IMG/VR virus record: IMGVR_UViG_3300046534_001250
Coordinates: 1-64,000 of that record
Source: a virus
Reading direction: 5' to 3' (one strand)
Length of the DNA stretch: 64,000 bases
The notes beneath the pieces are model-generated. The model worked only from the letters and a program-made list of their open reading frames with translations, was not told the origin of the DNA and did not search any database. Below are positions 4,314 through 30,612 of this stretch, piece after piece; position 1 is the first letter of the stretch; each line of letters begins with the position of its first letter. Both the position numbers and the translations under genes were made by a program.

Positions 4314-4773
4314 TACTGAAGTCACACGTTTGCGAGCCTTGTTAGGCGTTTCACAAACTTACTATTCCAAAACAAAATCAGGGTTGTTGACCTCCGCAAA
4401 GATGAGGCAATTGCAAACAGTGGGTATTCACCCCACTAAGACCCACTATCATAAAGGACTGGTGAGTACAGTACTCTATACCAAGGGATTAAACCTTGAT
4501 CTGTCGGCTATTGACGCACACATAAGGACCACTGATAGCGCTGAGATTAACAACCTTCATATTGAAGCTAGCATACTTCAATACTTAGCTTTTAATAAAC
4601 AAGGCGTCTCTACGAAAGAAGCATTAAAAGAAAGAAACAAACGACTATGTGTAATCGCTAAAGTAGCTTTACCTTCCTATGTTTGGGAAGAGCTTAGATC
4701 CACAAAAACGTTTATGAAAAACACAGCCCCTTATGTTGGGCTGTACAAGGCATCACTCAATGAATCTAAATGA
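4216..4773 (+). CDS. Hypothetical protein
   Basis: 185-aa ORF overlapping neighbours in operon fashion. Confidence 0.6.
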   Translation: MNLLTSSSSQKLTSLVNLHKENQKIQWKILTPNTEVTRLRALLGVSQTYYSKTKSGLLTSAKMRQLQTVGIHPTKTHYHKGLVSTVLYTKGLNLDLSAIDAHIRTTDSAEINNLHIEASILQYLAFNKQGVSTKEALKERNKRLCVIAKVALPSYVWEELRSTKTFMKNTAPYVGLYKASLNESK

Positions 4774-7066
4774 CAATTTCAACTTCATCTTGCCATACTC
4801 TATTGGCGGCAATGCTTCAAATCTATCTCTGGAGGCATCTAGAAACTTTGCTACGTATTACTCTGGATATAGAGGATGGTGTGCAGAGAATATATCCATT
4901 GACGAAGGCCCTGACAGATACTCTTACACGTCGCGGTCAAGCCTTACACTAACAAGAAATTGGTTAGTTCCAAGATTTGAAATTGATACTCCAACATGGT
5001 TTGTCAGATGCTCAAGTATTGAAACTTGGTCTAGAAGAGAAAGCGTAATTTCCAACGCTAGTTTGCCTGCAAAACACAATAGAGATTTACCATTCTTGTG
5101 GGTAATTCCAAAGCCTGCTGTAGTTGAAAACGGATATTCATATGCTGACTCAGAAACAATTGCGTACTTAGAAAGCCCACTGTTTTCTATAGCAGTCGCA
5201 GGGGATCCACTAGAAGGATCGCAGGGGCTTAACGGTACTAATAACATTAGGCATCAGCGCCACCAGCATGGCGTCTTGCGCATCTTTTCCAAAGAACAAG
5301 CAAGCGAATTGATTCCAGAGTTAGAGAACAAAGTCCCTACGATTAAAATCACAGGGCTGACCAGAGCTACTCCAGCTAACCCAAAGCCTAGTTATTCACT
5401 CAAGAAGCAAACCAAAGCACAAATCTTATCTGGCCAACGGCTATTCAGTTATATCCAGATAGTTACTGTCGTCGCAAACGACGGAACAGAAACTACAGAA
5501 AACTTGATTTCAGTAGGAATAGTTGGAGATGAAATACTCTTGAACTCCAGATACTCCGCTATATGTCTTCTAGCATTGATTGAATTTATTACATCAACAG
5601 AGTGGATAAATGATATCAAGTACCCGAACCAGGCTATTGTTCGAAACTTTTCTAGCGATCCAGAGTTCTGTCTATATTCTCAACCAACTGTGCCGTTTAA
5701 TATCAGCAATATCCCTGACACCAGCCACACGTCATTAAAAAACAGAGAGGCTAGCGATCTTACAGTCTTGAACTCTAGCGAAAGTGTTACTCGTGCACCG
5801 TTTGCCAGAACTTATTTGGCGGCAGTAAACAAAGTGGAATCTTACAGAGATCAAATTAAATCAATAGAGCAGGAAAGGAAGAGACACGAACAATTGATCC
5901 TTGAACACACCAGTTATATTGCAGAACGTACGCGTAAGATTGATCGGCTACAGAAAGATATCCTGACCGATAAAATACTTGTCAGAGAGGAACGACAAAA
6001 GGCTTTAATTGCTTCAGAAGCAATTCTCAAGCAAACTGATATCGTTGAAGTACTGACTCCGCAACTAGATGGACTTAAGGAGCTATTTAATAGCAAGTTA
6101 GAAAAATATACAGCTGAAGGAAGTTCTGTTCCTGCACTGGATAAGTATTTGTCCAACATGGGAATCAAGATTACTAAGTTGACATTCTTTGATGCTGAAG
6201 GCGAAACCATCAAATCACAAGACGTAGATGTAACCGGCATCCTTATGAATAGGTATGCAATCAAGAGTATGTCTTTTGAAACAACCCGACCTATGAACAT
6301 CAACGTACTGGATACTAACAAGCAAGTAGTTGATACTAGAGTCGGTGGACCATACCGTGTACGTCTCAAGCGATGTGCTGTACAGGAACGCTTTCAAGTA
6401 CGGATTAATGCATTAAGTCATGACAGTATTATAGGCATCGAACCTGTAACAAACACCGGCATCTTTTACGCAAAAGCCCATCCTCATACTGGCTGTTCTG
6501 CCTTGAAAAGAGATGATTATGTATCAGGGCTTGAAAGTCTTGTAAGCCAAGATATTGAACCATGTCTAGGCGAAGCCGAAGCAGCACTAGCTACTGCTAG
6601 CAAAACAAATAACATCAAAATGATTTTATTTGCAATGCTATCTTGGCTCAAGAATGCATACAAAGACGATCAATGGGGCAGGACCGCAGCCTGGTTTCCT
6701 AAGCCACGTTACATCGCTAATATGCTATTAGGAGAGGAGCTTGCTGCAGCAAAAATAGCTGTTTCTAACAATGGAATAAGCCTAATAGCTTATGCCAAAA
6801 TTGCATATTCAACAGACTACAGTATAACTTGGAGTCATGATGGAGCAATTGTGTGCGAAGAAGGCATAAGCTACGGTAAAGACCAATACAAGACTCTCTT
6901 ATTTTTCAAGAATAAAGAAGAGGCAAATTACTACATGCGTACACGATCTCAAGATTGGTTATCGTATTATCATAAGTACCATACTACAGATTGGTGCTTA
7001 GAAATTCTTAATGATTTTCCAGCCGAAACAGAAACACAAGAACAAATAGAAGAAATAAATGCATAA
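4760..7066 (+). CDS. Large multidomain protein with coiled coil and prokaryotic E2 (UBC-like) domain; possible C-terminal WGR-like domain
   Basis: AHPH (6479) ... PCLG (6563) ... WLKNAYKDDQWG; upstream of JAB, E1 and Ubl genes. Confidence 0.65.
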   Translation: MNLNDNFNFILPYSIGGNASNLSLEASRNFATYYSGYRGWCAENISIDEGPDRYSYTSRSSLTLTRNWLVPRFEIDTPTWFVRCSSIETWSRRESVISNASLPAKHNRDLPFLWVIPKPAVVENGYSYADSETIAYLESPLFSIAVAGDPLEGSQGLNGTNNIRHQRHQHGVLRIFSKEQASELIPELENKVPTIKITGLTRATPANPKPSYSLKKQTKAQILSGQRLFSYIQIVTVVANDGTETTENLISVGIVGDEILLNSRYSAICLLALIEFITSTEWINDIKYPNQAIVRNFSSDPEFCLYSQPTVPFNISNIPDTSHTSLKNREASDLTVLNSSESVTRAPFARTYLAAVNKVESYRDQIKSIEQERKRHEQLILEHTSYIAERTRKIDRLQKDILTDKILVREERQKALIASEAILKQTDIVEVLTPQLDGLKELFNSKLEKYTAEGSSVPALDKYLSNMGIKITKLTFFDAEGETIKSQDVDVTGILMNRYAIKSMSFETTRPMNINVLDTNKQVVDTRVGGPYRVRLKRCAVQERFQVRINALSHDSIIGIEPVTNTGIFYAKAHPHTGCSALKRDDYVSGLESLVSQDIEPCLGEAEAALATASKTNNIKMILFAMLSWLKNAYKDDQWGRTAAWFPKPRYIANMLLGEELAAAKIAVSNNGISLIAYAKIAYSTDYSITWSHDGAIVCEEGISYGKDQYKTLLFFKNKEEANYYMRTRSQDWLSYYHKYHTTDWCLEILNDFPAETETQEQIEEINA

Positions 7067-8225
7067 AGTAATTGGAACACAAACGATCGTACCTGTTGTA
7101 GGATCTAAAGCTGCTTTAATGATGGACGATACATTGTATCGTCAAACAAAGTATCTAGTTGATTCTCTCAAGACTGACGAAGTCCAGTGGTGGCACCGCG
7201 TCGAGAAAGTAACAGTTGAAGGAGCCACGTATTACATGCTGAAGGATTTGATTATCCCTCATCAAGAGGTACATGCTGCCACTACAGAAGTCGATGGGCA
7301 AAACCAGTACAAGGCTTACCAAGAAATCAAATCTCGCTTTACCCAAGAAGGCACAACAGACACAGAGTCAATGAACAAGTTCATTGGTGGCCTTACTTGC
7401 TGGAGCCACAGTCATGGAAACATGACCGTGGGGCCTTCGCCGCAAGACGAAGCACAGTTTAAGCTGTTCATTGAACAGCAGAGCAAAGATGACTTTGATC
7501 AGATCTTCCTTATGATGATCTGGAACAAGAAAGACGAAATCTATGCTCTCATTTATGATCCTGAAACATGCTTTATGATTGAGAATATTCCTCTGATTGT
7601 ATACTATCCAAATATCGAAACCGACTATATTGACGACGCTGTCGCCAATAAGGTCACAAAAAAAAAGCAAACGTATACACCAGTCAGTCAAACAACCTAC
7701 AGTGGGAAGAATGCCAAGGCTGGGAAGAGTACTACGAACAGCAAAGTCAACAATATGGCTCGGCGTATTCCTAGTGTGGGCGGACTTACGGGCAAGATTC
7801 GGACTCGCGCCTTTCAGCTGGGACAAATTGTCACTCAGTTCAGCAACCGACCTTCCGAACTGACAGAGTTAATGGAGATCTTCACGACTCATCTTGGCCA
7901 TAATGCCAATGCAATTCGTGCTCTCCGAATGCTTATCCACGGTGACTACAAGAACAAGGACCAGTTGAAAGCTTTTGAAAACTGGGACGAATCAGATTAC
8001 GAATTTGAAGTGATGGCGCTAGACAACCTTCTTAACACCGAATGGATTCCTAGCAATGGAATTATTGTACGCTCTCTAGATGTTGTGTCGTTTCTAACGA
8101 AACGACCTTCTCCCATGATTGGTTATGTTATTGACAACTTTTATGAATACTACGATGCTGTATACGAAGAAGCAGCAAAAGCAGTTCCTCAGCTAGAGGA
8201 TGGCGATCATGTCCGCAGTCTATAG
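7059..8225 (+). CDS. JAB/MPN+ (JAMM) metallopeptidase, deubiquitinase-like
   Basis: E(VQW)...HSH-GNMTVGP-S-PQ-D matches E..HxHx7SxxD. Confidence 0.88.
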   Translation: MHKVIGTQTIVPVVGSKAALMMDDTLYRQTKYLVDSLKTDEVQWWHRVEKVTVEGATYYMLKDLIIPHQEVHAATTEVDGQNQYKAYQEIKSRFTQEGTTDTESMNKFIGGLTCWSHSHGNMTVGPSPQDEAQFKLFIEQQSKDDFDQIFLMMIWNKKDEIYALIYDPETCFMIENIPLIVYYPNIETDYIDDAVANKVTKKKQTYTPVSQTTYSGKNAKAGKSTTNSKVNNMARRIPSVGGLTGKIRTRAFQLGQIVTQFSNRPSELTELMEIFTTHLGHNANAIRALRMLIHGDYKNKDQLKAFENWDESDYEFEVMALDNLLNTEWIPSNGIIVRSLDVVSFLTKRPSPMIGYVIDNFYEYYDAVYEEAAKAVPQLEDGDHVRSL

Positions 8226-8904
8226 ACCTACCTTCCTCAGGGCTGCCGCATGGGTAGGCCCGGCTATGTTGACCGACGTTGTTACTATCGTTGGTTGCGG
8301 AGCGACAGGATCATACATCGCAGTTGCTTTAGCCAAGATGGGATTCACCCAGTTCTGTATCTACGATTCAGATTTAGTAGAGCCACACAACTTGCCAAAC
8401 CAAGAGTATGACTCTCGGCATGTTGGAATGCTCAAGGTTGACGCTCTTGAGCTTAAATTGATGGAGTTTAATCCAGATATTACAGTCACAAAAAACAACG
8501 AGTTCTTCACCTCAGATACAGTCATTTCAGATTTCGGCCCAGTCATTTTGACTACAGATACCAATAGTAGTCGTGTCGAAATCATGAATGTATGTAAAGG
8601 AAATTTGATGGTTGACCACGTATTTGAAACCAGACTTGGGTTTCATCACGGCGAAGTTGCCATCGTTGATAATCATGATTCAGAATCCGTTGAAAAATGG
8701 CTGAATACAGTAAAGCCAGATGATGAAATACCAGATGGGCCTTGCAATGAGCGTACATGTACTACTCTAGTAATGATGATTGCCGCGTTTACCGTGCATC
8801 AAATCTGTGAGAAATACAGTGCAGCTACCAAAGATGAAAGATGGATATATAACAAACGAACTCTGATTCAAATGAATCCGAGTCTTACCGTACTCAGTAT
8901 GTAA
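8200..8904 (+). CDS. ThiF/E1-like ubiquitin-like activating enzyme
   Basis: IVGCGATGS; YDSDLVEPHNLPNQ; KV..L; TTD; TRLG; C-terminal Cys residues. Confidence 0.92.
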   Translation: MAIMSAVYRPTFLRAAAWVGPAMLTDVVTIVGCGATGSYIAVALAKMGFTQFCIYDSDLVEPHNLPNQEYDSRHVGMLKVDALELKLMEFNPDITVTKNNEFFTSDTVISDFGPVILTTDTNSSRVEIMNVCKGNLMVDHVFETRLGFHHGEVAIVDNHDSESVEKWLNTVKPDDEIPDGPCNERTCTTLVMMIAAFTVHQICEKYSAATKDERWIYNKRTLIQMNPSLTVLSM

Positions 8905-8913
8905 GGAGAAACA

Positions 8914-9129
8914 ATGGTTGTTTCACTAGTAATTTTCCCAGGCCGTGGCCTTGATGGACACGTCGTTCTTGAAGCAGGCGCAAGTTTGCAAGACCTCGTA
9001 AACAAGCGTGACCTTTCCGGTCGTAGCCTCTGCGTCAATGGCGAAGAAATTCCAAGCTCTGCTTGGGAATCTACCATTCTTGAAAGCGGCTGGGAAGTCG
9101 CTGCTCTGAGCCCTTCTAAGGGCAACTAA
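8914..9129 (+). CDS. Ubiquitin-like beta-grasp protein (ThiS/MoaD-like) ending KGN
   Basis: VNGEEIP..W.ST.LESG.EV pattern, penultimate Gly, strong AAGGAG RBS. Confidence 0.82.
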   Translation: MVVSLVIFPGRGLDGHVVLEAGASLQDLVNKRDLSGRSLCVNGEEIPSSAWESTILESGWEVAALSPSKGN

Positions 9130-9341: not shown

Positions 9342-10271
9342 ATGTTACAAATCACAGACCTAACAGTTTCGCCACAGTTTGTTGATCAGATGTATTCAGA
9401 GGGAACTGTTAAGAAAAACGCTCCATCTAATATTCCAGTCAACAGCTATGTCTTGTTTAGGGATGAAACCAATCCAAAGCATACTGCTTTAGCTAGATAC
9501 TTAGGCGATAACACTTGGCAACGTATTGCATCTAATTCCAGTTTGCAAACACAAGGAATTTCTCCAAAAGATGCTTACCAATGCGCATTTGTTGATGCGC
9601 TAAAAGCTCCAGGAACACTACTCAACGTAGCAACTGGTGCGGCTGGAACAGGTAAGACTCTGCTTGCGATGGCACACGCTATTGACCAATGGATGACGAC
9701 TCGTAAAAAGATTATCTTGTCTAAGCCTACCTCTATGGTTGGTAGCGGATCCGCTTTTGGGCCTGTGCCTGGTGACATTGAACAAAAGTATGCACCTTAT
9801 CTGGCTTCTTACGATATCGTATTGAAGAAAGTGTTAGGAGACTCTTACACAGGTTTTGTCAATTCAGCTATGAAGAATGGAGACATCGAGTTTGTGCCAA
9901 TTGAATTGTCTCGCGGTTGCACTTATGAAAATGCAACCTTTATTCTCGATGAAGCACAGAACCTTTCATGGCATGAGTTAAACACCATCGTCTCTCGTAT
10001 GGGTCAAGGCACAAACCTTATTATCCTAGGGGATCTAAATCAAATCGATACAGATTCTTACAAAACAGATACAGGACTATGGAAGTTTCTACGAAGCACT
10101 CCGTTTAATAAGAGCAATATCACCAGTTCAATTCAGCTAAAGACTCAATACCGTAGTCCGATTACACAATTGGTCTCAGATGTAAACGATTGGATTATTG
10201 AAGATGCAAAGCAAGCAAGAAACAGTAGACGCGATCTTCCAGCAACTAACAGCACATCCGACGAAGGATAG
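9342..10271 (+). CDS. phoH: PhoH-like ATPase
   Basis: GAAGTGKT; PGDIEQK; RGCTY..FILDEAQN; GDLNQID; RS. Confidence 0.92.
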   Translation: MLQITDLTVSPQFVDQMYSEGTVKKNAPSNIPVNSYVLFRDETNPKHTALARYLGDNTWQRIASNSSLQTQGISPKDAYQCAFVDALKAPGTLLNVATGAAGTGKTLLAMAHAIDQWMTTRKKIILSKPTSMVGSGSAFGPVPGDIEQKYAPYLASYDIVLKKVLGDSYTGFVNSAMKNGDIEFVPIELSRGCTYENATFILDEAQNLSWHELNTIVSRMGQGTNLIILGDLNQIDTDSYKTDTGLWKFLRSTPFNKSNITSSIQLKTQYRSPITQLVSDVNDWIIEDAKQARNSRRDLPATNSTSDEG

Positions 10272-10464
10272 GCTTGAAGTTCTGGGGAATGTGTTTATAT
10301 TATTAGGAGCCGAGGGCCTTGAAGTCCCCGGCAACTTAGAAATTAATCAAGACAATATAACTGGACTAGCCTTAGCTCATCAGAAGAAACATGGAGAGAA
10401 TATCTCTACTACACTGGTGATGCAGGGGCTTACTATGCTTATATGGTTAGAAAACATAAAGTAA
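10198..10464 (+). CDS. Hypothetical protein
   Basis: Co-oriented ORF. Confidence 0.55.
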   Translation: MKMQSKQETVDAIFQQLTAHPTKDRLEVLGNVFILLGAEGLEVPGNLEINQDNITGLALAHQKKHGENISTTLVMQGLTMLIWLENIK

Positions 10465-10474
10465 GGAAAAGCAC

Positions 10475-10921
10475 ATGCCCAGACACGGCGTAATGAAATT
10501 TTATAAGTCTTTAGGCGCAGCACAATTTACGCTGCTGCCAGTAAAGCGAAACGATAAAGAATTTGTGGAAAGAGAAGGAGGTATTTTAGTTGAGGTCGCC
10601 CCAGGCGATGGCAAACGAGATAATCCAAACTGGGATTGGGACAGGAAGATCTCATTTGCAATTAGTTTTAACGACATTTGCAATCTCCTAGACCAAGACC
10701 CAGCTAAGCACCGCATCTTCCATAAACATAAGGACTCCCCCAAGACATTGCATTTTCAACCAGCTACCGATGAAAGGTATGCAGGTACGTTTATGCTACA
10801 GTTAGCAATGGGGTCCGGATCAAATAGACAAGCAGTATCAGTTCCCATTACAAATGGTGAACATGGCGCAATTATGCGTATGCTAGTAGCAGCACTACCT
10901 AAGTTAGTAGCATGGGAATAA
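10475..10921 (+). CDS. Whirly-like ssDNA-binding protein
   Basis: FYKSLGAA / REGGILVEVAP / WDWDRKISFAISFNDI / IFH..KTLHFQP / VPITNGE parallel the plant Whirly motifs in order. Confidence 0.75.
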   Translation: MPRHGVMKFYKSLGAAQFTLLPVKRNDKEFVEREGGILVEVAPGDGKRDNPNWDWDRKISFAISFNDICNLLDQDPAKHRIFHKHKDSPKTLHFQPATDERYAGTFMLQLAMGSGSNRQAVSVPITNGEHGAIMRMLVAALPKLVAWE

Positions 10922-11262
10922 AGAATCTCACCTGGAACATTGAAGTTCCAGATGGGAAGAGAGTAAAAATGACTTCGGAGCAGGTGATAAAGCTGCTATC
11001 CGATAAAGTCATGGAAGTCGAAAAAGAAGATATAGACCAACTAGTAGTGACGCTTGCAGATTACCTGGAAGCAAACTCTATGTTACGCAATTTGCGTGCT
11101 GTTGATACTATCCATCTAGGATTCGCAATAGGATATTACTATCGCGTATTTCTGGAGAAAAATGATGTTCAATTGGAGAACAAGGATGGGAATACAACCA
11201 GCAATAGCGGTGACATTGAAGCACCCGGCAGTTCACTCAGCAGCAATTCGGCTACTGACTGA
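10912..11262 (+). CDS. Hypothetical protein
   Basis: Co-oriented overlapping ORF. Confidence 0.6.
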   Translation: MGIKNLTWNIEVPDGKRVKMTSEQVIKLLSDKVMEVEKEDIDQLVVTLADYLEANSMLRNLRAVDTIHLGFAIGYYYRVFLEKNDVQLENKDGNTTSNSGDIEAPGSSLSSNSATD

Positions 11263-11407
11263 CTTCGCTACGATAGGGATCGTAGGAGCAGTCTCCTACA
11301 TACAAGATGCTCTCGCAAATAAAATCGCTGACAAGATCATCGAGAAAGAGAGACAAGAGGAAAAACAAAATGAGTGTACAGTACAACGCAACAGTGAACC
11401 TAGTTAA
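11186..11407 (+). CDS. Hypothetical protein
   Basis: AAGG before ATG; fills gap. Confidence 0.5.
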   Translation: MGIQPAIAVTLKHPAVHSAAIRLLTDFATIGIVGAVSYIQDALANKIADKIIEKERQEEKQNECTVQRNSEPS

Positions 11408-11777
11408 TACCCAAGGCAGCAGCTTACGAGCTTTTGCTACAGTCTTCGTCAAAATTGATGATGAATTCACTGTCGCCCTCAATGGCTTTCGTGTCATTGA
11501 AGGAAGCAAAGGTATTTTCGTGACCCCTCCCCAGACTAAGGCTAATAAGCCGGATGAAAATGGTAAGTTTAAATACTACAATGACATTCGATTCCTAGAA
11601 GAAGATCTGCCAGAAGGAACTTACGATGGCCCTCAAGAGAAGGCTGCGAAGGACGCTGTTCTAGAAGCCTATGGTGCCGCAATCGGAACCGCAACACGCG
11701 GAGGAGCCGCCTCCGCACAGGCAAATCAGCCTCAACGTACTGAGTCGCGTCCGACTCACACCCCCTCAAACTGGTAA
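11370..11777 (+). CDS. SpoVG-family nucleic-acid-binding protein
   Basis: LRAFATV..DDEF.V.LNGFRVIEGSKGIFV.PP..K...G..Y.DI; GAGG RBS. Confidence 0.85.
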   Translation: MSVQYNATVNLVNTQGSSLRAFATVFVKIDDEFTVALNGFRVIEGSKGIFVTPPQTKANKPDENGKFKYYNDIRFLEEDLPEGTYDGPQEKAAKDAVLEAYGAAIGTATRGGAASAQANQPQRTESRPTHTPSNW

Positions 11778-11818: not shown

Positions 11819-12352
11819 ATGTCAATAACATTTGAGCAAGTAGATACTCAAGACATTGTTGACGAAGTAATAGCAACTGCGCAGAAGCACGGTGACATCA
11901 ATCAGGCGTTGATGGACCAATTTGAATTCTCAGGCAAGTCACTGACAGAGTGGATGGACGACGTAGCAGTCCCTATTCCAACTGAAGTGACCCCTGAGAA
12001 TTTTCGTAATGCCTTTACCCTCTGGGCTCGCAAGTTTCAGAAGGTTAACTACTATTACTCCATGGCTAATACCATGTTCTCAGCAATGAGTTCCGGTGGC
12101 GAGATTAAAAAGTCCGACTTGATATCCGCGCTAATGGAACACTACGCAAAAACGAAAGCAAAAAGACCTGCAGCTGCTACGCTTGAACGCATGGCAGACT
12201 CTTACATGGTCGATACAGTCAACACCCGTATCGCTGCTAAGATTGTACGTGACTTCTGGAAAGATCGTAAAGATACTTTGATTGAAGTTCGTAAAGCCTT
12301 AGAGTCGATCGGCATTTCCATGAACATGGAAATGAAATACCACGAGACCTAA
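11819..12352 (+). CDS. Hypothetical helical protein
   Basis: 177-aa ORF. Confidence 0.7.
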   Translation: MSITFEQVDTQDIVDEVIATAQKHGDINQALMDQFEFSGKSLTEWMDDVAVPIPTEVTPENFRNAFTLWARKFQKVNYYYSMANTMFSAMSSGGEIKKSDLISALMEHYAKTKAKRPAAATLERMADSYMVDTVNTRIAAKIVRDFWKDRKDTLIEVRKALESIGISMNMEMKYHET

Positions 12353-17129: not shown

Positions 17130-17742
17130 TATGGTGACGGGCCAAGGTCATGCGATTTACTTCTCTAATCCAGAGAGGACTACAATCGACCTACTTGATC
17201 TTCGCCGAAGCACCATGAATATCTGCAGATACAATGGGCACCTGAACTGGAAGCTCGTACAGCACTTGTGGTTATGTGTACAGTTGGCTAAGGCTAATTA
17301 TACACTCAACCCCTTAGCTTCACTATATGCTGGTGCTCACGACCTGCATGAAGTGTATGTTGCAGATATTGTTTCAGGAATGAAACCACACCTGACAAAC
17401 TACAGACGTATTGAATATAGCTGGGAAGTTTATGTTCATGAGTCACTAGGCTTGCCCTGGAGCCTACGCCCGCATGAAGAAGTCAAGTACGTTGACATGC
17501 GCGCCCTAGTATTAGAAATGAATGTACTCAGACATCCATCTGCTAAAGAAGTAGCCTCTCAACTAGGAGGGGAACCTTCTGGCGAAGAGCTACAAATCAT
17601 GATGGACGTACGTGCATTAAGCGTTTCAGACTGTTGGGATTTGCTTTGGGCGGAAATTTGCCAGGGAATCCAATATATTAAAGAGGTACGAAATGGCAAA
17701 GGCAAAAGCAACAGTCAAGAAAGAGAAAGTCGAAGTAGCTAA
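17113..17742 (+). CDS. HD-domain 5'-deoxynucleotidase-like phosphohydrolase (YfbR/YfdR-like)
   Basis: CRYNGH..VQH..HDLHEVYVADI...K; VKYVD. Confidence 0.82.
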   Translation: MNQPVDMVTGQGHAIYFSNPERTTIDLLDLRRSTMNICRYNGHLNWKLVQHLWLCVQLAKANYTLNPLASLYAGAHDLHEVYVADIVSGMKPHLTNYRRIEYSWEVYVHESLGLPWSLRPHEEVKYVDMRALVLEMNVLRHPSAKEVASQLGGEPSGEELQIMMDVRALSVSDCWDLLWAEICQGIQYIKEVRNGKGKSNSQERESRSS

Positions 17743-18892
17743 CAAAACGGGAATCCGTGAGTTAGACGCAATGCTTGCAGCAGTTTCTAAGAAGTTCGGA
17801 AAAGACCTAGGTGGAGAAAACTACGGAGACGTAGAAATCTTTACTACCGGCTCATTGAACTTTGACATTGCGTTAAAGCGTGGTGGTATTCCCACCAATA
17901 CAGTTATTGAAATCTATGGCCCCAACAGTAGTTTTAAAACTACGTTTGCTGTCATAGCCTTAGCGGCACGACAGAAGTGGCGCAAGGAACAAGGTATCAC
18001 TGATCAGCGAGACCTGATCATTGACCTTGAATACAGTATGGAAGAGAGCTATCTAGTCAGTTATGGCGTAGATATGGACATGGTTATTTGGGTTCGCCCA
18101 GATACTATTGAAGAAGCTCTTCAGATGTGTATCGATATTCCAAAGAGCGGCAAGATTGATTACGTAATCTTTGATAGTGTTGATGCTGGTCAGAATGAAC
18201 GTCAGCAGCGTCGCCAAGTTGGAGAAGCAGATGTGGGAGGTTCGTCGAAAGACATGAACTTCGCTCTCCGTACGCTATCTAAGCTGTGTCATGAATATAA
18301 AACTACATATTGGTTCATTAATCAAATCAAGATGAACCCAGGTGTAATGTTCGGAAGCCCAGAGACAACTCCTGGCGGACTAGCTCTTGGATTCTATGCT
18401 TCGTTGCGTTTAAAGATGTTAACTCGGGCAAAGGTCCCAGACCTTCCAGGTGCATCTATGATTAGGTGCAAGGTTGGTAAGACAAAACTCAGTGGCGATG
18501 TAGAAGACTTAGTCACTGCCGCAATCATCTGGGGGCAGGGCTACGATGAGACTTACGAGCTAAACGCGCTAGCAACAAAGTATGGTATACTACGTCATAG
18601 TGCAGGGCAAACCAAAGTAGCATGGACTAAAGAACATGAACTTGAACCTATCGATTCGGAAGTTGAACCAGGCAAACAAGCAGGTATCGATTACATTCGG
18701 ACTAATGATGGTCCGCGTTTTAGATTGCGACATGCTGTATTGCGGGCCACCGAAACTGGTGGAGCAATGTCTGATGAAGCTGCCCTAGCATTTATCAAGG
18801 AGAAATATGGAGATGGAAGAGAAGACTCACCGACTGATGGAGTCAGTGAGGAAGATACAGAATCAACAGATGACGCAGAAGATTCTGAATGA
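17693..18892 (+). CDS. recA: RecA/UvsX recombinase
   Basis: TTGSLNFDIAL..GGIP; EIYGPNSSFKTT; VIFDSV; FINQIK..PGVMFGSPETTPGG.AL.FYASLRL. Confidence 0.95.
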   Translation: MAKAKATVKKEKVEVANKTGIRELDAMLAAVSKKFGKDLGGENYGDVEIFTTGSLNFDIALKRGGIPTNTVIEIYGPNSSFKTTFAVIALAARQKWRKEQGITDQRDLIIDLEYSMEESYLVSYGVDMDMVIWVRPDTIEEALQMCIDIPKSGKIDYVIFDSVDAGQNERQQRRQVGEADVGGSSKDMNFALRTLSKLCHEYKTTYWFINQIKMNPGVMFGSPETTPGGLALGFYASLRLKMLTRAKVPDLPGASMIRCKVGKTKLSGDVEDLVTAAIIWGQGYDETYELNALATKYGILRHSAGQTKVAWTKEHELEPIDSEVEPGKQAGIDYIRTNDGPRFRLRHAVLRATETGGAMSDEAALAFIKEKYGDGREDSPTDGVSEEDTESTDDAEDSE

Positions 18893-22704: not shown

Positions 22705-24036
22705 ATGGAACCAGAACAGAATCAATTTGTACATCTTCACGTGCACACCGAGTACTCAACTTTGGATGGCATCAATCGAGTTGATCAAACACCAGATCAT
22801 ATCAAAAGCATGGGGCAAGAAGCTGTAGCTATTACAGACCATGGTAACGTCGCTGGCACTTACGACTTCTTCAAAGAATGTAGAAAGTCAGACATCAAAC
22901 CAATCCTTGGCATGGAAGCTTATTACACAGTAAATGATAAATCAGCGCGTGAAAAAGACGAAGATGGAAAGAACTACTACCATTTAATCCTTCTTGCTAA
23001 GAACAACATAGGGTTAAAGAACCTCTATGCTATATCTACTAAAGCTTTTACTGAAGGTATGTATTATAAGCCTAGGGCAGATGATGCTTTGCTGGCCGAA
23101 CATTCCGAAGGAATTATAGCCACAAGTGCCTGCCTTGGGAGCAGGGCTTCCCAGCTTATCTTAGCTGGTAGGAACGATGAAGCTGAACGACTTATCCTGC
23201 ATCACGCCGCTATCTTTAAAGGCAACTTCTTGATCGAGATCCAACTACACGACGATGATCAACAGCTAGTTAATGCAGTACTAATCCTTATAGCCAATAA
23301 GCACGGCCTGCCAATCATACTAAGTAATGACTGCCACTACCAACATGAAGTCGACAAAGAACTACACGAGCAGGCTCTCTGTATGTCAACGAATATGATT
23401 ATGTCAGATCCTCCCTGGAATCCAGAGTCTAAAGGAACTGCGACAGGCAAGACTCGATTCTCTTTCGGAGACATTGACGTCCACGTAGCCTCGACTGAAT
23501 GGATGTGGAAGAAGGCAAAAGCTCTAGGCATCCCATTAGAAGCTATTACAAACACTAGGTACGTAGCCGACATGATTGACGACTCGTCTTACTTCATGGA
23601 CAAGAAAAACCGCTACCCGTCATTCCCTGGACTCAGTGGGCTCCCACCATGGGAGGCTCTTGAGAACTTATCAAAGCAAAAGCTTATGGAAAAAATGGGA
23701 GGTATGCCGCCGGAAGAATACCGGGATAGAATGAATAGCGAACTAGCAGTTATTAAGAAGATGGGCTTCTACGACTATCTTCTTATCGTTGAAGACTTCT
23801 GTACTGGTGCTCGCTCTGAGGATGTATGGATTGGCCCAGGACGAGGAAGCGCAGCAGGATCATTAGTAGCTTATGCGCTAGGGATCACGCAAGTAGATCC
23901 TATCAAGTACGGCTTAATCTTTGAAAGATGGCTTAATTACGGGCGTGCCGCAACCCCGCTTATCTTTGATAGGCAAATGATTAAACAAATAAAGGAAACA
24001 CATGTACCAAAAACAACCTGTGGCCACAGTCACTGA
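22705..24036 (+). CDS. dnaE: DNA polymerase III alpha (DnaE), N-terminal piece: PHP domain through GRGS/FER motifs
   Basis: FVHLHVHTEYSTLDG; AITDHG; HLILLAKN..GLKNL; GPGRGSAAGSLVAYALGITQVDPIKYGLIFERWLN. Confidence 0.93.
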   Translation: MEPEQNQFVHLHVHTEYSTLDGINRVDQTPDHIKSMGQEAVAITDHGNVAGTYDFFKECRKSDIKPILGMEAYYTVNDKSAREKDEDGKNYYHLILLAKNNIGLKNLYAISTKAFTEGMYYKPRADDALLAEHSEGIIATSACLGSRASQLILAGRNDEAERLILHHAAIFKGNFLIEIQLHDDDQQLVNAVLILIANKHGLPIILSNDCHYQHEVDKELHEQALCMSTNMIMSDPPWNPESKGTATGKTRFSFGDIDVHVASTEWMWKKAKALGIPLEAITNTRYVADMIDDSSYFMDKKNRYPSFPGLSGLPPWEALENLSKQKLMEKMGGMPPEEYRDRMNSELAVIKKMGFYDYLLIVEDFCTGARSEDVWIGPGRGSAAGSLVAYALGITQVDPIKYGLIFERWLNYGRAATPLIFDRQMIKQIKETHVPKTTCGHSH

Positions 24037-24503: not shown

Positions 24504-24530
24504 AAACCAGGGCTGTGAAAGCAGCCCTGT
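24502..24530. terminator. Terminator at convergent junction
   Basis: CAGGGCTG-TGAAAG-CAGCCCTG; T tract on - strand. Confidence 0.75.
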
Positions 24531-25393
24531 TATCCTAACTTACGCCTGTTGATCCAAGCTCGCTTACCGGCTTCGACACGCCGCTTATCAATTTCTGGGC
24601 CGAATTCGAAACTGCCCCCAACATCTTCTATATTATCTGGAGCCGATAGAAATACTTCCATGTCTAAGGCATACTTGTTTAGCCTGGCAATATCATTGTT
24701 TAATACATTTCCGACATGTATCTCAGAAAGCTGCTCGATTACTCCAAGAGCACCTTTCTTCCACTTGCCATAAGTACGATCCTCTACGCGGTAAGGACTG
24801 GCCCCGATCGCATATAGCCTCGTGCATGTTTGGCGAGCTCTTTCAGGCAACGGTGGGTAAACAGCAACGCCACCGCCATCCATGTATCTCCAACCTTCTA
24901 CAGGCTCATGATAAGGCAGGATGGCACTACTGCGCCCAATCCACATCAGTTGATCATCGATACTAAGCTCATCAATTCGAATTAACTTGGCCCCAGGAAG
25001 ATATTCAGGATCGATCCCACTAGGCGCCCAACTACTCCTGTCTGTAACCAATACCCAGCATTCTACCACGCAGGGATTTTCTTCTAAGTAGGGACGTAGT
25101 CGCCGCATAAAGACATTAAGACTCTTCCACCCATTTAAGGGGTTGATGTCGTTAACTCTCTGGACATCTCGCTCCTTAACGATATTGTTACTAAATTCTT
25201 CCAGCGCACTCATGGCATTTGCAGCAGCAAAACGAGCAGCAGTAGCTCCAATACTATTGCCAACAAATCCGTCAGGATGCTTTCCAGTGATAGCCAAGGC
25301 TTCATCAATAGCGCCCTGAATCTGCGGAAGCTCACTTCTTCCTCTGGCTCCACCACCACTAATTATAAACCATACGTTAGGGCGCTTCATCAT
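24530..25393 (-). CDS. Patatin-like phospholipase
   Basis: SGGGARG glycine loop, GNSIG nucleophile elbow, DGG. Confidence 0.88.
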   Translation of the reverse strand: MMKRPNVWFIISGGGARGRSELPQIQGAIDEALAITGKHPDGFVGNSIGATAARFAAANAMSALEEFSNNIVKERDVQRVNDINPLNGWKSLNVFMRRLRPYLEENPCVVECWVLVTDRSSWAPSGIDPEYLPGAKLIRIDELSIDDQLMWIGRSSAILPYHEPVEGWRYMDGGGVAVYPPLPERARQTCTRLYAIGASPYRVEDRTYGKWKKGALGVIEQLSEIHVGNVLNNDIARLNKYALDMEVFLSAPDNIEDVGGSFEFGPEIDKRRVEAGKRAWINRRKLG

Positions 25394-26265
25394 TATGGAG
25401 CCCAGGGAGCAAGTTTCGATAACAAATACATTTGAATCGTTACGCCTTCGGCAACCGGCACATCTAACCAGGCAAAATCAACTGAAGAGCTATCTGCTAC
25501 AGCTTCGTGCAGAGTTCTTGAACCACTTGTCAAGAAAGCAGAATCAGCACCTTTTAACGAAACTAAATAAGCTGTGCCACCAGTTGAGGGGTCTGCAGAG
25601 TTGTTGAGTGCCAAGATTGCACTGCCAATAACAGCTGAAAGCTCATCAATGACATTTTGTCTACGCCGACGACCAGCAGCAATACTAGGACCTGCTGCTG
25701 AAAGAGAACCAGGAGTCGCAGCAGCAGTGTTGAAGCGTTCAGCATATTCAAGCCAAGACTCACTACTAGTCTTAAGCAAAGGAGAAGCAAGAGTAACGTA
25801 GGGTTTAAATCTATACTTAGTTGCACAAACATTACCAGCAGTATCTAGCCACTGAATGGTCATAAGTCTACAGTAGGGGCCGACACTATTAGTCTGAGCA
25901 CTCGGAGCTGGCCAGTAAGTCGATAGCTCTTTTATCACCGTATCTGCAGAGCTATTAATGAGTTCAGTTCTAACCTGGTGACCGTACTCAAAAACTTCAG
26001 TTCGATCAAGCCTGGTCATTAAGCCAGACTTGTAATTAAAAGCAGTAAGCGGTCCCCAAAGACTATCAGCAGGAAGAAGAGCCAACAACCTAGCAGGTGC
26101 ATCTTCAACGTACCATCCATTCTTGACAATAAGCTCTTCTAAGTCAGTATCCGTACTGAAAACCTCTAATGTTTGATTGTCACTTTGAGACATAGTTGCG
26201 CCTGTAGCAGCAACCCAGTTAAAGAGTTCAGCGGACTTGTATCCATAATGATGTATTAAGCTCAT
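25393..26265 (-). CDS. Hypothetical protein, possibly virion-associated
   Basis: Coupled within the - strand cassette. Confidence 0.65.
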   Translation of the reverse strand: MSLIHHYGYKSAELFNWVAATGATMSQSDNQTLEVFSTDTDLEELIVKNGWYVEDAPARLLALLPADSLWGPLTAFNYKSGLMTRLDRTEVFEYGHQVRTELINSSADTVIKELSTYWPAPSAQTNSVGPYCRLMTIQWLDTAGNVCATKYRFKPYVTLASPLLKTSSESWLEYAERFNTAAATPGSLSAAGPSIAAGRRRRQNVIDELSAVIGSAILALNNSADPSTGGTAYLVSLKGADSAFLTSGSRTLHEAVADSSSVDFAWLDVPVAEGVTIQMYLLSKLAPWAP

Positions 26266-27221
26266 AGCGTTGCTCCCCAAGGACTAGACTTTGTAGCAAG
26301 TTTCTTTAAGCCAAGTAAGACTTTTCTGCCAGACACACCGGTAGTATGAGCGCATAAGCCAGCATAAGTGTGTTGCCCACGACTACTAGCTGGAGGGATA
26401 TTTGTAGTCAAAAGACCAGAAGTGATAGTTGCATCTTCTACACCAGCTTCTCTAATCGCCCAGTGAATCCTTACGCCACCATCAACAAGAAATCCAAGTT
26501 CATAATTTTTGCCCTTTACAAACGCAACACCTGTATCAACAACAGTTGAGGTAGCGCTTCCATCATTATGAATTACCTCCCAGGTTGTGCCCTGGCTTCC
26601 ATCAGAAGACAATCTAATAGAAACATGAGGCTCGCTTGTACTTGACTTTGGATCAGCAAGCTGAAGACCTTCAAAGCCACTGCTCGTTAAGGCGTTGACT
26701 TTCCATCTCAAAACCAAACCAAGCCTGCACCAGGTCAAGACTGCATCTGACTCTGTACCTACTATCCAAGAGACCCCATGCGCTCCGTCAGCAGCAAAGC
26801 CGTTGTAGGTCTCTCTAGTAGTAGCAATCCCATCAACAGCCGCGCTACATGCAAGGTCTAACATTGTGCCAACACCGACTACTTGAAGATAGTCTGTTGA
26901 GCTAGAAACGTTGCTATGATTAGGGTTTGAAGTGTTTGAGAAAGCAGTACTTCTGTTTAAGACAAATGCTGCTCCGTACGAGTACTGGTTTATTATGCTG
27001 AAGACATCATTGCTTACGCCGCCGCCACCACCGCCAACAGGTTCATAAAGAGCATCAGCTTCAGCTTCAGTTAGTAGATTGGCAGCAGTAATCTGAGTAT
27101 CTGCAATACCAGGAGCCAAGGCATTAACTCGTGCATCAACTTCTGTTTCATCTGCACTGATAGCTTGGACCCCGGCTTCAGTCATGCCGCTAGTTGCTAC
27201 AGTTTTAGATAAACCAGCCAT
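26262..27221 (-). CDS. Putative virion protein with C-terminal beta-sandwich resembling the tail-fibre tip at 51052
   Basis: Poly-Gly linker; IR....W.V....G..TV.DTGV motif. Confidence 0.6.
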   Translation of the reverse strand: MAGLSKTVATSGMTEAGVQAISADETEVDARVNALAPGIADTQITAANLLTEAEADALYEPVGGGGGGVSNDVFSIINQYSYGAAFVLNRSTAFSNTSNPNHSNVSSSTDYLQVVGVGTMLDLACSAAVDGIATTRETYNGFAADGAHGVSWIVGTESDAVLTWCRLGLVLRWKVNALTSSGFEGLQLADPKSSTSEPHVSIRLSSDGSQGTTWEVIHNDGSATSTVVDTGVAFVKGKNYELGFLVDGGVRIHWAIREAGVEDATITSGLLTTNIPPASSRGQHTYAGLCAHTTGVSGRKVLLGLKKLATKSSPWGATL

Positions 27222-27604
27222 TACCACACCACCAGCTGAATAACAGCTGGAGTAGCCAGCGTCATAGCAGTAATCTCAATAGAAGAAACACTGACTCCAT
27301 CTACAAGTTCGATTAGAGCGCCTATGTCAGTGAACGTAGCGAACGCAGGGTCTCCGCTCCAGATGTCAGTACTATCAACATGGTTTGTAGACCGACCGAA
27401 ATCAGTTTGGATGTGCCTGGAAATAAGGTTATTAACCTTGTAACTAACACTATCAGTAGCAGATGTAGTTATCATTTTTAGCCCACGAGCAGGCCTGCCT
27501 AACACATCATCGATATTAATACGATCGCCGACAGCAACGTCAGTGATCACAACCGTACGTTGTGCACTAGGTACAGAACGCGGGACTTTGTTTACAGTAG
27601 CCAT
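27221..27604 (-). CDS. Hypothetical beta-rich protein, possibly structural
   Basis: GGAG RBS before MATVNK; TAATG coupling. Confidence 0.65.
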   Translation of the reverse strand: MATVNKVPRSVPSAQRTVVITDVAVGDRINIDDVLGRPARGLKMITTSATDSVSYKVNNLISRHIQTDFGRSTNHVDSTDIWSGDPAFATFTDIGALIELVDGVSVSSIEITAMTLATPAVIQLVVW

Positions 27605-27653
27605 TGTTATCTCCAGGTAGATGATGCCGGAGAGCACCATTCAATTACTTAAG

Positions 27654-27705: not shown

Positions 27706-28881
27706 ATGACAAACTTAACTAGCTGGTACATACCAGAAAGATTAAAAACTGTGGACCCAGACTTTCTTTCATTTGAAGAGGACCTATCCACTCAAGAAGA
27801 TAGACTAACAATATGGAACCTAGCAGAATCTAGAGCACTAGGAACTCTGCCTAATCCGCACAATAGTATCCTGCTCTACGTTACTGGCCTGACAGACGAC
27901 TTTGATCCCATCAAAGCACGAGTAGATACCACTGGGGGAAGTCCGCCAGATATTGATATTGACTTTGAATCACTCAATCGAGACAAAGCAATTGCATGGG
28001 TAATTAACAAGTGGGGGCAAGATAACGTCGCCAACATCATAACCCATGGTACATTCAAGCCAAAGAGTTTAACGCGGAGATACTTCAAAATAACTGAAGA
28101 AGAACCTCGATTAATGCAAGACATTTTGGAAGCTGTACCTAAACCTCTCTTCGGAAAAGAGGCTACTTTAGCTGAAATCATTCAGGGCAACGAGGACAAA
28201 AACTATGAACCTCACCCTCGACTAGCAACAGACGGAAAGTATAAAGGCTGGTACAAGTTCGCTAGCCAGTTAGAAGGAATGATTACTAACTTTGGAATCC
28301 ATGCAGGCGGAGTAGTCATTAGTGACTTCCCTATCTACGAACAGGTTCCAATGTGGAAGAACTCTAAGAGTGAGCGCATTACCCAGTTCGATATGCACGA
28401 GGTAGAAGACCTCGGGCTAATTAAGTTTGACTTCTTAGGTGTTAATAATATTGACATCATCAAGGAAGCTTGTAGGCTTGTAGGCGAAAACCACGGAATA
28501 ACGTTAGATCCGTACCAGATACCAGACCATGACAAGCGAGCATACGCGCTCCTTAACAGTGGGTTGCTTTGCGGAATCTTTCAGATGGAAACTAGTGGCT
28601 CGGCCAGAGATCTCATCATGCAAATCCTCCCAACAAGTATCGAAGACCTTAGTGACATCAGCGCGTTAAACAGACCTGGTCCACTTGAGAATCATTTCCA
28701 TACGCTCTACATGGAAAACAAAGCCAATGGGTACGCGCCAGAAGGCATCAACGAAATCGTTGCAGACATTACCAAGAGTACCCACTATACGATCATCTAC
28801 CAAGAACAGGTGATGGCAATCGTATCGCGACTCGCAGGCTTTACCTTGAGGGAGGCAGATGATGTCCGCAGAGCAATGGGT
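27706..28881 (+). CDS. dnaE: DnaE catalytic piece, exon 1 (palm/thumb)
   Basis: PPDIDIDF; GIHAGGVVIS; TQFDM.EVE.LGLIKFDFLG; GIFQME; ALNRPGP; IIYQEQVM; ADDVRRAMG. Confidence 0.93.
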
Positions 28882-29265
28882 TAACAACAAAATTCTTTAT
28901 ACGCTATACTCCAACCGAGAGGCAAGTATGCACGCTAAAAGAAAAGCCCGGTATCTGGGTGACCAGATGCAAAAACCACCCCGTGAATTGCTGGGAAGTC
29001 CTGAAGAGGATGATCAGCAGCCAAGCCCTGAGAGCAATCTCTCGGAAGGTTCAACGACTAGTTCAAACGTTCTCACCGAGAATATGAAGGACCACGAGCG
29101 CGGGGCATCAATACCATTCAAAGAAATTATCTCTGCACATCTAATGACAGCAGAGACCAAACTTAAATTTGAATACATATTTGATGATGATATAGTCTGA
29201 GCTACGTATATAACAAAGCAAAACGTAGAAGCGCAGGATAAAGAGCCTGCGCGATAACATAACTG
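28882..29265 (+). mobile_element. Group I intron (IA-like), no recognisable homing endonuclease
   Basis: 5' exon ends U (GGT), intron ends G; splicing gives RRAMG-KKKM; P3 CCCCGT/GCGGGG, P4 TTGCTG/CAGCAG, P7 GACTA/TAGTC, P9 hairpins. Confidence 0.92.
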
Positions 29266-30612
29266 AAAAAAAAGATGTCCGTACTTGAGGCAGTTAAGCC
29301 CAAGTTCATTACAGGATGCCTAGCAAGCGGTACGACCTCAGGAGCCGCTGAAGCTCTTTGGAAGCAGTTGATTCTATTCAGTCACTACGGCTTCAACAAG
29401 TCACACAGCGTCGCTTACAGTGTCATTACGTACGTGTGTGCATACCTAAAAGCCAACTATCCAGCAGAATTCTTCTGTGCCCTCATGACTATCCGTAGTC
29501 AGACGATGGCTACTAAGGATTGGTGCCTTAAGGCGCCAGAGTATGTGCAAGAGGCAGAGAACATGGGGATCCGTATCCACGGACCCAACGTTCAGCAAAG
29601 TAACATCGGCTTCAGTATCGTAGAGAAGGAGATTTACTTTGGACTTAATGCCATCAGAAATGTAGGTATTACAGGTGCCAGAAGTGTAATGCAGGCACGA
29701 GGAAACCGTCGATTTAAAGACGTCAATGACTTCGTCTTCAGGATTGACCGCCAGAAAGCAAACACGAAAGTGTTCGCAGCCCTAATATACGCTGGAGCCT
29801 TTGACAGAATGGGGTACGACAGAAATGAATTGCTAACCAGCGCAAGAGCCCTCTATGATTATCCAAAAGATTATCAAGACTCTGTAACTAGAGACGCAGA
29901 CATTGTTGTCAGAGACAGGCAAAACATAGTGGTTGAAACGCGAAGAGAAGAGATAAGACTTCTTGTTAAGGAAGCTAAGGCTCTCAACCGAAAAGCCTTA
30001 AAGGCTAATCTGCCTGTGTCAGAAGAGACTGAATACTGGGTGGAATACACTCAGTATATTAAGGACTTGAAGGCAAAAGCGGCAGACATTAAACAGGCAG
30101 AGGAGGAGTTGGAAAATCATTTTGACCAAAGAGAATTAAAAGACTACCTAGAAGCAGCATCGCTAAGAAAGCTGCCAGCACTTAAACCTAAGCCTAAGCC
30201 AGAAGTAGTTATTGTTTCTAGGAGCACTACGATTAGTTTGTCAGTAGACCAGCTAATTATGCAAGCCGATTACATTGGTTGCTACTTGGGTGACAATCCA
30301 GCGGCAATCATTTTCCCAGAAGCTGAGGCAATCGCCGCAGTAGAAGACTGCGACTACACTATTATTTGTGGAGTCGTAACCAAAGTGAAAGAAATCATGA
30401 CAAAAGCAGGAGACCCAATGGCCTTCTTGCAGATTGGAGACGGAACTGCCATGGCAGAGATCGTCGTATTCCCTAAGCAATTTAAACGCTTTCACGAGAA
30501 CAAAACGTTCCCTGCCGAAAAAGATCTAGCTCAGTTTGCTGGACGTATAAAAGGCATGGAACCGATCACGATGCTAGCGGATCAAGTCGAAATTTACAGG
30601 AGACCTGAATGA
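29266..30612 (+). CDS. dnaE: DnaE catalytic piece, exon 2 (fingers, HhH, OB fold)
   Basis: FSHYGFNKSHSVAY..AYLKANYPAEFFCAL; IYFGLNAIRNVG; AGAFD; MAFLQIGDGT. Confidence 0.93.
   Translation, partial: KKKMSVLEAVKPKFITGCLASGTTSGAAEALWKQLILFSHYGFNKSHSVAYSVITYVCAYLKANYPAEFFCALMTIRSQTMATKDWCLKAPEYVQEAENMGIRIHGPNVQQSNIGFSIVEKEIYFGLNAIRNVGITGARSVMQARGNRRFKDVNDFVFRIDRQKANTKVFAALIYAGAFDRMGYDRNELLTSARALYDYPKDYQDSVTRDADIVVRDRQNIVVETRREEIRLLVKEAKALNRKALKANLPVSEETEYWVEYTQYIKDLKAKAADIKQAEEELENHFDQRELKDYLEAASLRKLPALKPKPKPEVVIVSRSTTISLSVDQLIMQADYIGCYLGDNPAAIIFPEAEAIAAVEDCDYTIICGVVTKVKEIMTKAGDPMAFLQIGDGTAMAEIVVFPKQFKRFHENKTFPAEKDLAQFAGRIKGMEPITMLADQVEIYRRPE

Follow-up and report, generated by a model that had tools for sequence, protein, structure and literature searches.

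A minimal Whirly-family protein in a conserved gene block of uncultivated large phages

The Whirly proteins of plant organelles, exemplified by potato PBF-2 p24 (StWhy1) and StWhy2 and by Arabidopsis WHY1, WHY2 and WHY3 (PDB entries 1l3a, 3n1h, 4koo, 4kop and 4koq), bind single-stranded DNA (ssDNA), and plant reviews describe them as plant-specific or unique to plants (PMC9070903, PMC6963530). Whirly-fold proteins of phages and bacteria are so far known by structure only, as far as the accessible text of the literature goes, namely ChmC of the Chimalliviridae and the sensor domains of Shedu and Menshen. Here we describe a phage gene that is related to the plant proteins at the level of sequence. 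It lies in a stretch of viral DNA, hereafter the window, that comprises the first 64 kb of the 82,033-bp IMG/VR virus record IMGVR_UViG_3300046534_001250 (CheckV completeness 62%), and its product, to judge by the sequence, is a true, if minimal, Whirly-family protein. A literature search made at listing level and without supplements returned no description of sequence-level Whirly genes in phages: among the matches listed for PF08536 all were plant work, those for Whirly together with jumbo phages were confined to ChmC, and those for Whirly in viral metagenomics included no phage Whirly by title or abstract. The gene and the signal in front of it are as follows.

10475..10921, + strand: Whirly-family gene, an open reading frame (ORF) of 148 amino acids (aa) with an ATG start, whose product matches PF08536 and plant Whirly PDB chains
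10463..10467, + strand: AAGGA, a Shine-Dalgarno-like element read from the sequence, 7 nt before the Whirly ATG and overlapping the stop codon of the upstream gene p88

A sequence-only reading of the window had assigned this ORF to the Whirly family on the strength of five motifs. The ORF was recovered exactly as proposed and all five motifs are present in the protein, as YKSLGAA (residues 10-16), REGGILVEVAP (33-43), WDWDRKISFAISFNDI (53-68), IFH..KTLHFQP (81-96) and VPITNGE (123-129). Four of them are aligned by HMMER to the plant counterparts REG.V.LQFAP, YDWSRKQ.FSLS..EI, FFH..K.L.VEP and IPITKAE of AtWHY3, WHY1 and WHY2, and the fifth, the counterpart of YKGKAAL, is paired with p24 and WHY3 at the profile level. 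The Pfam model PF08536 bore out the proposed homology well beyond what chance would produce, with a score of 43.3 bits (E 4.1e-11; cut-off 23) and residues 25-134 of the protein aligned to profile positions 21-134 of 136; a search of the genome instead of the ORF gives 42.5 bits. When the protein was compared by phmmer with all PDB chains, only Whirly proteins were found, AtWHY3 (4koq) being the best match (E 1.6e-5), followed by five further Whirly chains (from WHY1, WHY2, StWhy2 and p24) at E values up to 0.019.

The relationship becomes much clearer when homologues are considered together. A scan of 1.84 billion representative proteins yielded 119 clusters at E <=1e-3, 50 of them at E <=1e-10, mostly of 140-170 aa. 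A family profile built from 95 short homologues aligns along the entire domain with the six distinct Whirly PDB chains (p24, WHY1-3 and StWhy2), at E values of 2.9e-24 to 3.4e-22, spanning residues 42-195 of p24 and 13-166 of WHY3, and the next PDB matches follow only at E ~0.5. The alignments indicate that the whole Whirly domain is present, consisting of two beta-sheet repeats and a C-terminal helix; this helix, GEHGAIMRMLVAALPKLVAW, is aligned to AEFAVLISAFNFVLPHLIGW of the plant proteins, and the final Trp is aligned as well. All 95 homologues agree at three positions, G35, W55 and H83. The plant chains share W55 and H83, and opposite G35 they have Gly in WHY3, WHY1 and p24 but Arg in WHY2. 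At a further four positions, K58, D67, K90 and E129, the residue is kept in at least 90% of the homologues; of these, the plant chains share K58, K90 and E129 and carry Glu opposite D67. The protein database already tags proteins of this kind as PF08536. Two of the closest homologues in it, P0003 and P0007, are encoded on contigs of 205 kb and 191 kb, respectively. PHROGs holds no family for the phage protein, the best match having an E value of 0.34.

The phage protein consists of a bare domain of ~140 residues, which begins around residue 8; the protein ends with W147-E148 (...LVAWE), two residues past the domain. It has no transit or organelle-targeting peptide and no linker, and it lacks both the acidic or acidic/aromatic C-terminal tail and the flexible linker with acidic C-terminal tip that replicative ssDNA-binding proteins (SSBs) use to recruit partners. 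The database gene call for this ORF (P0001, 142 aa) begins at Met7; the start at 10475 is favoured over Met7 because Gly5 is invariant among the 12 closest homologues. In the counterpart of the KGKAAL motif, YKSLGAAQ, the first lysine is kept and the second is replaced by Leu13, at a position that is variable among the same 12 homologues.

What the phage protein has in common with the plant organellar Whirlies is homology in sequence over the whole domain, with the conserved positions W, K, H, K and E and the C-terminal helix retained. The genetic setting is also alike, since the phage gene is accompanied by a bacterial-type RecA and, in relatives, by a canonical SSB, a combination that organelles have too. 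In contrast, it is phage-encoded, has Leu in place of the second KGKAAL lysine, and is without the targeting peptide and the acidic/aromatic C-terminal tail that is described for the plant proteins (PMC6963530). Identity to the plant proteins is low, as the single-sequence E values of 1.6e-5 to 0.019 attest, and the phage protein falls in a clade far from the plant/algal clade.

The closest described phage protein is ChmC (PhiPA3 gp61, PhiKZ gp67), which is reported to have a Whirly-type fold, to form tetramers and to bind nucleic acids in single-stranded form (bioRxiv 10.1101/2023.09.22.559000); for the present protein the tetramer and the binding are predictions. ChmC differs in that it was recognised by its predicted structure only, with no sequence similarity to known proteins according to the same report, and in that it carries a disordered C-terminal region of 50-70 residues and prefers RNA, whereas the protein described here is tailless and matches PF08536 directly. 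The genomic context differs too: rIIA/B, DnaE and RecA are found in the present phage group, and the PHROG scans run on it gave no annotation of the chimallin type. The sPC4/Whirly-fold sensor domains of Shedu and Menshen and the MRP1/MRP2 proteins of T. brucei are reported to belong to the same broad fold class of single-strand binders, but they are kin by fold only, being domains of larger proteins or RNA-editing factors, and none of them appeared in the phmmer or family-profile searches of the PDB. Canonical SSBs with an oligonucleotide/oligosaccharide-binding (OB) fold (PF00436) resemble the phage protein as presumed tetrameric ssDNA binders and have an unrelated fold.

Relatives of the locus were collected with pattern scans seeded with an alignment of 12 sequences (A2), which yielded 3 IMG/VR loci, 28 loci in metagenomes from marine, groundwater and other samples, and 2 contigs in metagenome-assembled genomes labelled Candidatus Saccharibacteria (L005, 23.5 kb) and Bacteriovoracaceae (L006, 158 kb). 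Since the entire phage block is present on both of the latter, they are most likely phage DNA binned with cells. Another 2 IMG/VR loci came from a seed taken in a more distant Whirly clade; scans of IMG/VR and metagenome contigs with a single protein returned no loci. In total 35 loci were available, 33 of them with distinct Whirly DNA, and the counts of neighbouring genes given below use only loci with enough flanking sequence. The median identity to the window protein is 43.8% for Whirly, 45.7% for RecA, 44.3% for ThiF and 48.6% for PhoH, and one complete relative of 150 kb (G002) is collinear with the window over ~58 kb. Because the gene block is conserved, Whirly is about as similar between relatives as RecA and ThiF, and G002 is collinear, we conclude that Whirly belongs to the core genes of a widespread group of uncultivated large phages, with genomes of 150-192 kb, and has been passed down vertically for a long time. 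No close cultured relative was found among 50,697 GenBank phage records: tblastn with the Whirly protein gave no match at E 1e-3, all matches to the RecA and to a DnaE piece of the window were below 60% identity, and the DnaE matches listed reached at most 43%.

Across the related loci the block has a fixed order, in which a ubiquitin-like (Ubl) cassette, PhoH, p88, Whirly, p116, a SpoVG-like gene and p177 follow one another, with RecA some kb downstream. In the window these genes are arranged as follows.

4733-9129, directly upstream: cassette of ThiF (E1-like) and two large proteins that carry no annotation, kept in 20 of 20 related loci with room
9342..10271, + strand: PhoH-like ATPase (PF02562, E 3.1e-38), upstream of Whirly in 23 of 23 loci with room
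10198..10464, + strand: p88, a small conserved gene without a Pfam or PHROG match, upstream in 21 of 28 loci with room (tblastn)
10912..11262, + strand: p116, overlapping the end of the Whirly gene by 10 nt, detected at 21 of 29 loci with room
11370..11777 (longest ORF from 11307), + strand: SpoVG-like nucleic-acid-binding protein (PF04026, 28.5 bits, just below the cut-off of 29.6), located downstream in 24 of 24 loci with room
11819..12352, + strand: p177, helical and conserved, present at 23 of 23 loci with room
17693..18892, + strand: bacterial-type RecA recombinase (PF00154, E 4.2e-51), 6.8 kb downstream of Whirly, the proposed partner

Both p88 and p116 are short and fast-evolving and are detected less often than the other genes of the block. 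Altogether 12 related loci have RecA downstream of Whirly; of the seven with a full 10 kb of downstream sequence, five have it. In 17 of 24 related loci p116 starts -8 to +6 nt from where the Whirly stop codon ends, and this overlapping or abutting arrangement suggests that the two genes are translationally coupled. The surroundings of Whirly further include a Lon-type AAA ATPase, a Holliday-junction-resolvase-like nuclease, a dATP/dGTP diphosphohydrolase and a 5'-nucleotidase; farther along are rIIA, rIIB, DnaE in pieces, an Mre11-like phosphoesterase, a primase-helicase, a ligase, a thymidylate synthase and a prohead protease.

The sequence-only reading had cast the protein as an SSB of the phage, with the additional remark that no OB-fold SSB was recognised in the window. 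The remark itself is correct and even extends to the whole 82,033-bp record, in which PF00436 finds no SSB; searches for SSBs of the gp32 and T7-gp2.5 types were likewise negative in this record, as were searches with an SSB protein from the phage lineage itself and with an SSB profile of that lineage (--max, all six-frame ORFs), with the record being 62% complete. In seven of the eight relatives that reach far enough, however, a canonical PF00436 SSB gene lies 10-13 kb upstream of Whirly and has the same orientation. These relatives are G001 (192.5 kb, complete), G003, contig 47 of G004 (the contig of L005), contig 1 of G005 (the contig of L006), L043, G006 and G007 (158 kb, complete). In G001 and L043 the SSB gene precedes the Lon gene by ~1 kb. 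The window continues for 2.1 kb ahead of Lon, with two tRNA genes and small ORFs, before the contig ends.

398-473, very start of the contig: tRNA-Asn(GTT)
665-741, very start of the contig: tRNA-Val(TAC)

The position expected for the SSB gene therefore falls at or beyond base 1 of the contig, and its absence from the window says little. The absence probably reflects where the contig ends and is not evidence for a replacement of the OB-fold SSB by Whirly. Of the earlier proposal that the protein serves as the phage SSB, the expectation of ssDNA binding is a fair one for a member of this family; the argument from the missing OB-fold SSB fails, because seven of eight relatives carry one, the window contig ends where it would be expected and Whirly has neither a linker nor an acidic tip. 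The OB-fold SSBs of the phage group (L016 8037-8441 and those of G003, G004 contig 47, G005 contig 1 and L043) are themselves short (112-134 aa), with neither a long linker nor an acidic tip of the classic kind. The co-occurrence of both proteins in seven of the eight related records means that Whirly is not a simple stand-in for the OB-fold SSB.

The single exception is the complete and collinear relative G002, in which no PF00436, gp32 or Enc34-type SSB was detected. Its Whirly protein (L003 7974-8504; also P0012) carries an acidic, coiled C-terminal extension of ~25 residues, and together these two features speak for a substitution, which keeps the idea alive for the G002 sub-lineage on the basis of one case. 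For the phage of the window, whose protein ends bluntly and whose relatives mostly encode an SSB, it is improbable that Whirly has replaced the OB-fold protein as the replicative SSB, and Whirly is probably not its main SSB.

A role next to the SSB appears to fit better. The reading that we put forward, and to which we give an even chance, is that the phage Whirly is an accessory ssDNA-binding homotetramer that works beside the OB-fold SSB, aids the phage RecA in recombination-dependent replication and break repair, and is made together with p116. We infer such an accessory role in recombination because a canonical SSB coexists in most relatives, because Whirly has no recruiting tail, and because the block contains RecA, the resolvase-like nuclease and the Mre11-like enzyme. 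Going by the family, the protein would assemble as a homotetramer as the plant Whirlies do, and the tetramer would bind ssDNA without sequence preference. It would then act alongside the ordinary OB-fold SSB of the phage, not in its place, and would serve the phage's own RecA as an accessory factor, and its production would be tied to that of the small protein p116 through the overlap of the two genes. The closest experimental parallel comes from plants, where purified Arabidopsis Whirlies are reported to promote strand exchange by organellar RecA and canonical mitochondrial SSBs are reported not to do so (preprint 10.64898/2026.10.24.761589). According to the same preprint, organelles possess the trio of SSB, Whirly and RecA, the combination that is also seen in relatives of the window phage.

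Several observations weigh against this role and must be kept in mind. The Whirly fold and the tetramer are predicted from sequence alignment. The second KGKAAL lysine, on which 24-mers and cooperative binding of ssDNA depend in the account of PMC3245945, is replaced by Leu13 at a position that varies in close homologues, so that the mode of action linked to it is not expected in the phage protein. RecA is 6.8 kb away from Whirly and not adjacent. No SSB was found in the 82 kb of this phage, a record that is 62% complete, and G002 appears to do without an OB-fold SSB, so that Whirly may be able to cover that role there. All linkage stems from one phage group and hence amounts to a single evolutionary observation. 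Finally, the adjacent PhoH and SpoVG-like genes could as easily be related to RNA, and ChmC, the single phage protein of Whirly fold to have been studied, is reported to prefer RNA (bioRxiv 10.1101/2023.09.22.559000).

The last two points lead to a different explanation, according to which the main task of the protein is to bind RNA, for instance as an mRNA chaperone or regulator, in concert with the PhoH-like ATPase and the SpoVG-like protein. The constancy of these two neighbours, which are present wherever the loci have room for them, would agree with such a function, as would the dissociation constants given for ChmC, 58 nM for RNA versus 184 nM for DNA (bioRxiv 10.1101/2023.09.22.559000), and the binding of both DNA and RNA by plant Whirlies (PMC9070903). 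ChmC, however, is described as having no sequence similarity to Whirly and has another architecture, whereas the phage protein is a sequence-level relative of plant proteins that bind ssDNA, and the wider gene block is one of DNA metabolism. We consider an RNA role unlikely.

The ThiF (E1-like) cassette, which is found upstream at every locus with room, raises the thought that Whirly might be a target or partner of the ubiquitin-like system. Other roles may be imagined as well, such as a compactor of DNA, as plant WHIRLY1 is described to compact nucleoids (PMC9070903), or a decoy for defence sensors, since Shedu and Menshen sensors are reported to contain sPC4/Whirly-fold domains. No specific feature of the protein favours any of these functions, and with the linkage coming from one phage group, function cannot be separated from shared ancestry; we regard this set of roles as very improbable.

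The origin of the family was approached with quick maximum-likelihood trees. These are unrooted, built on a sample seeded from the phage side and contain one named land-plant sequence (P0150, Cuscuta WHY1); fragments below 125 aa, the giant proteins P0087 and P0118 and the shortened P0001 call were excluded, and in the second tree also five near-identical long rows. Rows of at least 200 aa ("long" rows) were taken as eukaryotic from their length alone. The starred clade of the query comprises 24 of 132 rows in the first tree and 35 of 152 in the second. Sequences of at least 200 aa with N-terminal extensions form one clade with Cuscuta WHY1 (SH-aLRT 99%), and the 29 phage rows verified by synteny are set apart from the long rows by a single branch (SH-aLRT 84%). 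With the plant/algal clade taken as root, 79 of the 152 rows fall outside both this clade and the smallest clade that contains all verified phage rows. Being unrooted and phage-seeded, the trees are silent on the direction of transfer of Whirly between phages and plants.

Among organellar proteins, the RNA polymerase and Twinkle are derived from phages. A more far-reaching and, in our estimate, doubtful scenario would be that a whole group of large aquatic phages shares the organelle trio of OB-fold SSB, Whirly and bacterial-type RecA, that their Whirly is a RecA helper made with p116 next to a tailed SpoVG-like protein, and that the plant Whirlies descend from such a phage gene. Irrespective of this scenario, a phage core gene with true sequence kinship to Whirly makes the family older and wider than the term plant-specific allows. 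A version of 148 residues without targeting peptide or tail, furthermore, makes the debated job of Whirly beside SSB and RecA testable with a few phage proteins.

Some features of the remaining genes may be added. The conserved N-terminal part of p116 (~85 aa) contains a GYYYR.FLEKN.V motif and is followed by an acidic, Ser-rich tail; p116 matches no Pfam or PHROG family, and profiles of p116 and p177 have no relatives in the PDB at E <0.5. For p177, a role as a UvsY-like mediator was considered and is rejected for now, its sole basis being a look-alike cluster in the ESM atlas in which 21% of the members carry PF11056. No support for it came from hmmscan of 20 orthologues against Pfam and PHROGs, from PF11056 on five records or from hhalign to a UvsY-like ORF (probability 0.5%). 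The assignment of the SpoVG-like protein is strengthened by a profile of 17 orthologues, which matches SpoVG structures at E values of 3.6e-9 to 1.6e-8. In this protein the SpoVG domain is followed by a low-complexity linker and a C-terminal Trp that is invariant in all 17 orthologues, a layout of domain, linker and tip that resembles the arrangement of the partner-binding tip in SSBs.

The window stretch occurs in several ice metagenomes (DNA), and no RNA dataset is listed for it. Its DNA polymerase is encoded in pieces.

22705-24036, 27706-28884 and 29275-30612, in the window: DNA polymerase III alpha (DnaE), separate pieces

Four minus-strand genes (24530-27640), one of them patatin-like, lie between the first and the second of these pieces. 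An interrupted gene was also noted in the 192-kb relative G001, in which the Lon-type AAA gene is split by a Cys-rich, HNH-like ORF of 246 aa, after which the Lon frame resumes (L016 9736-11999).

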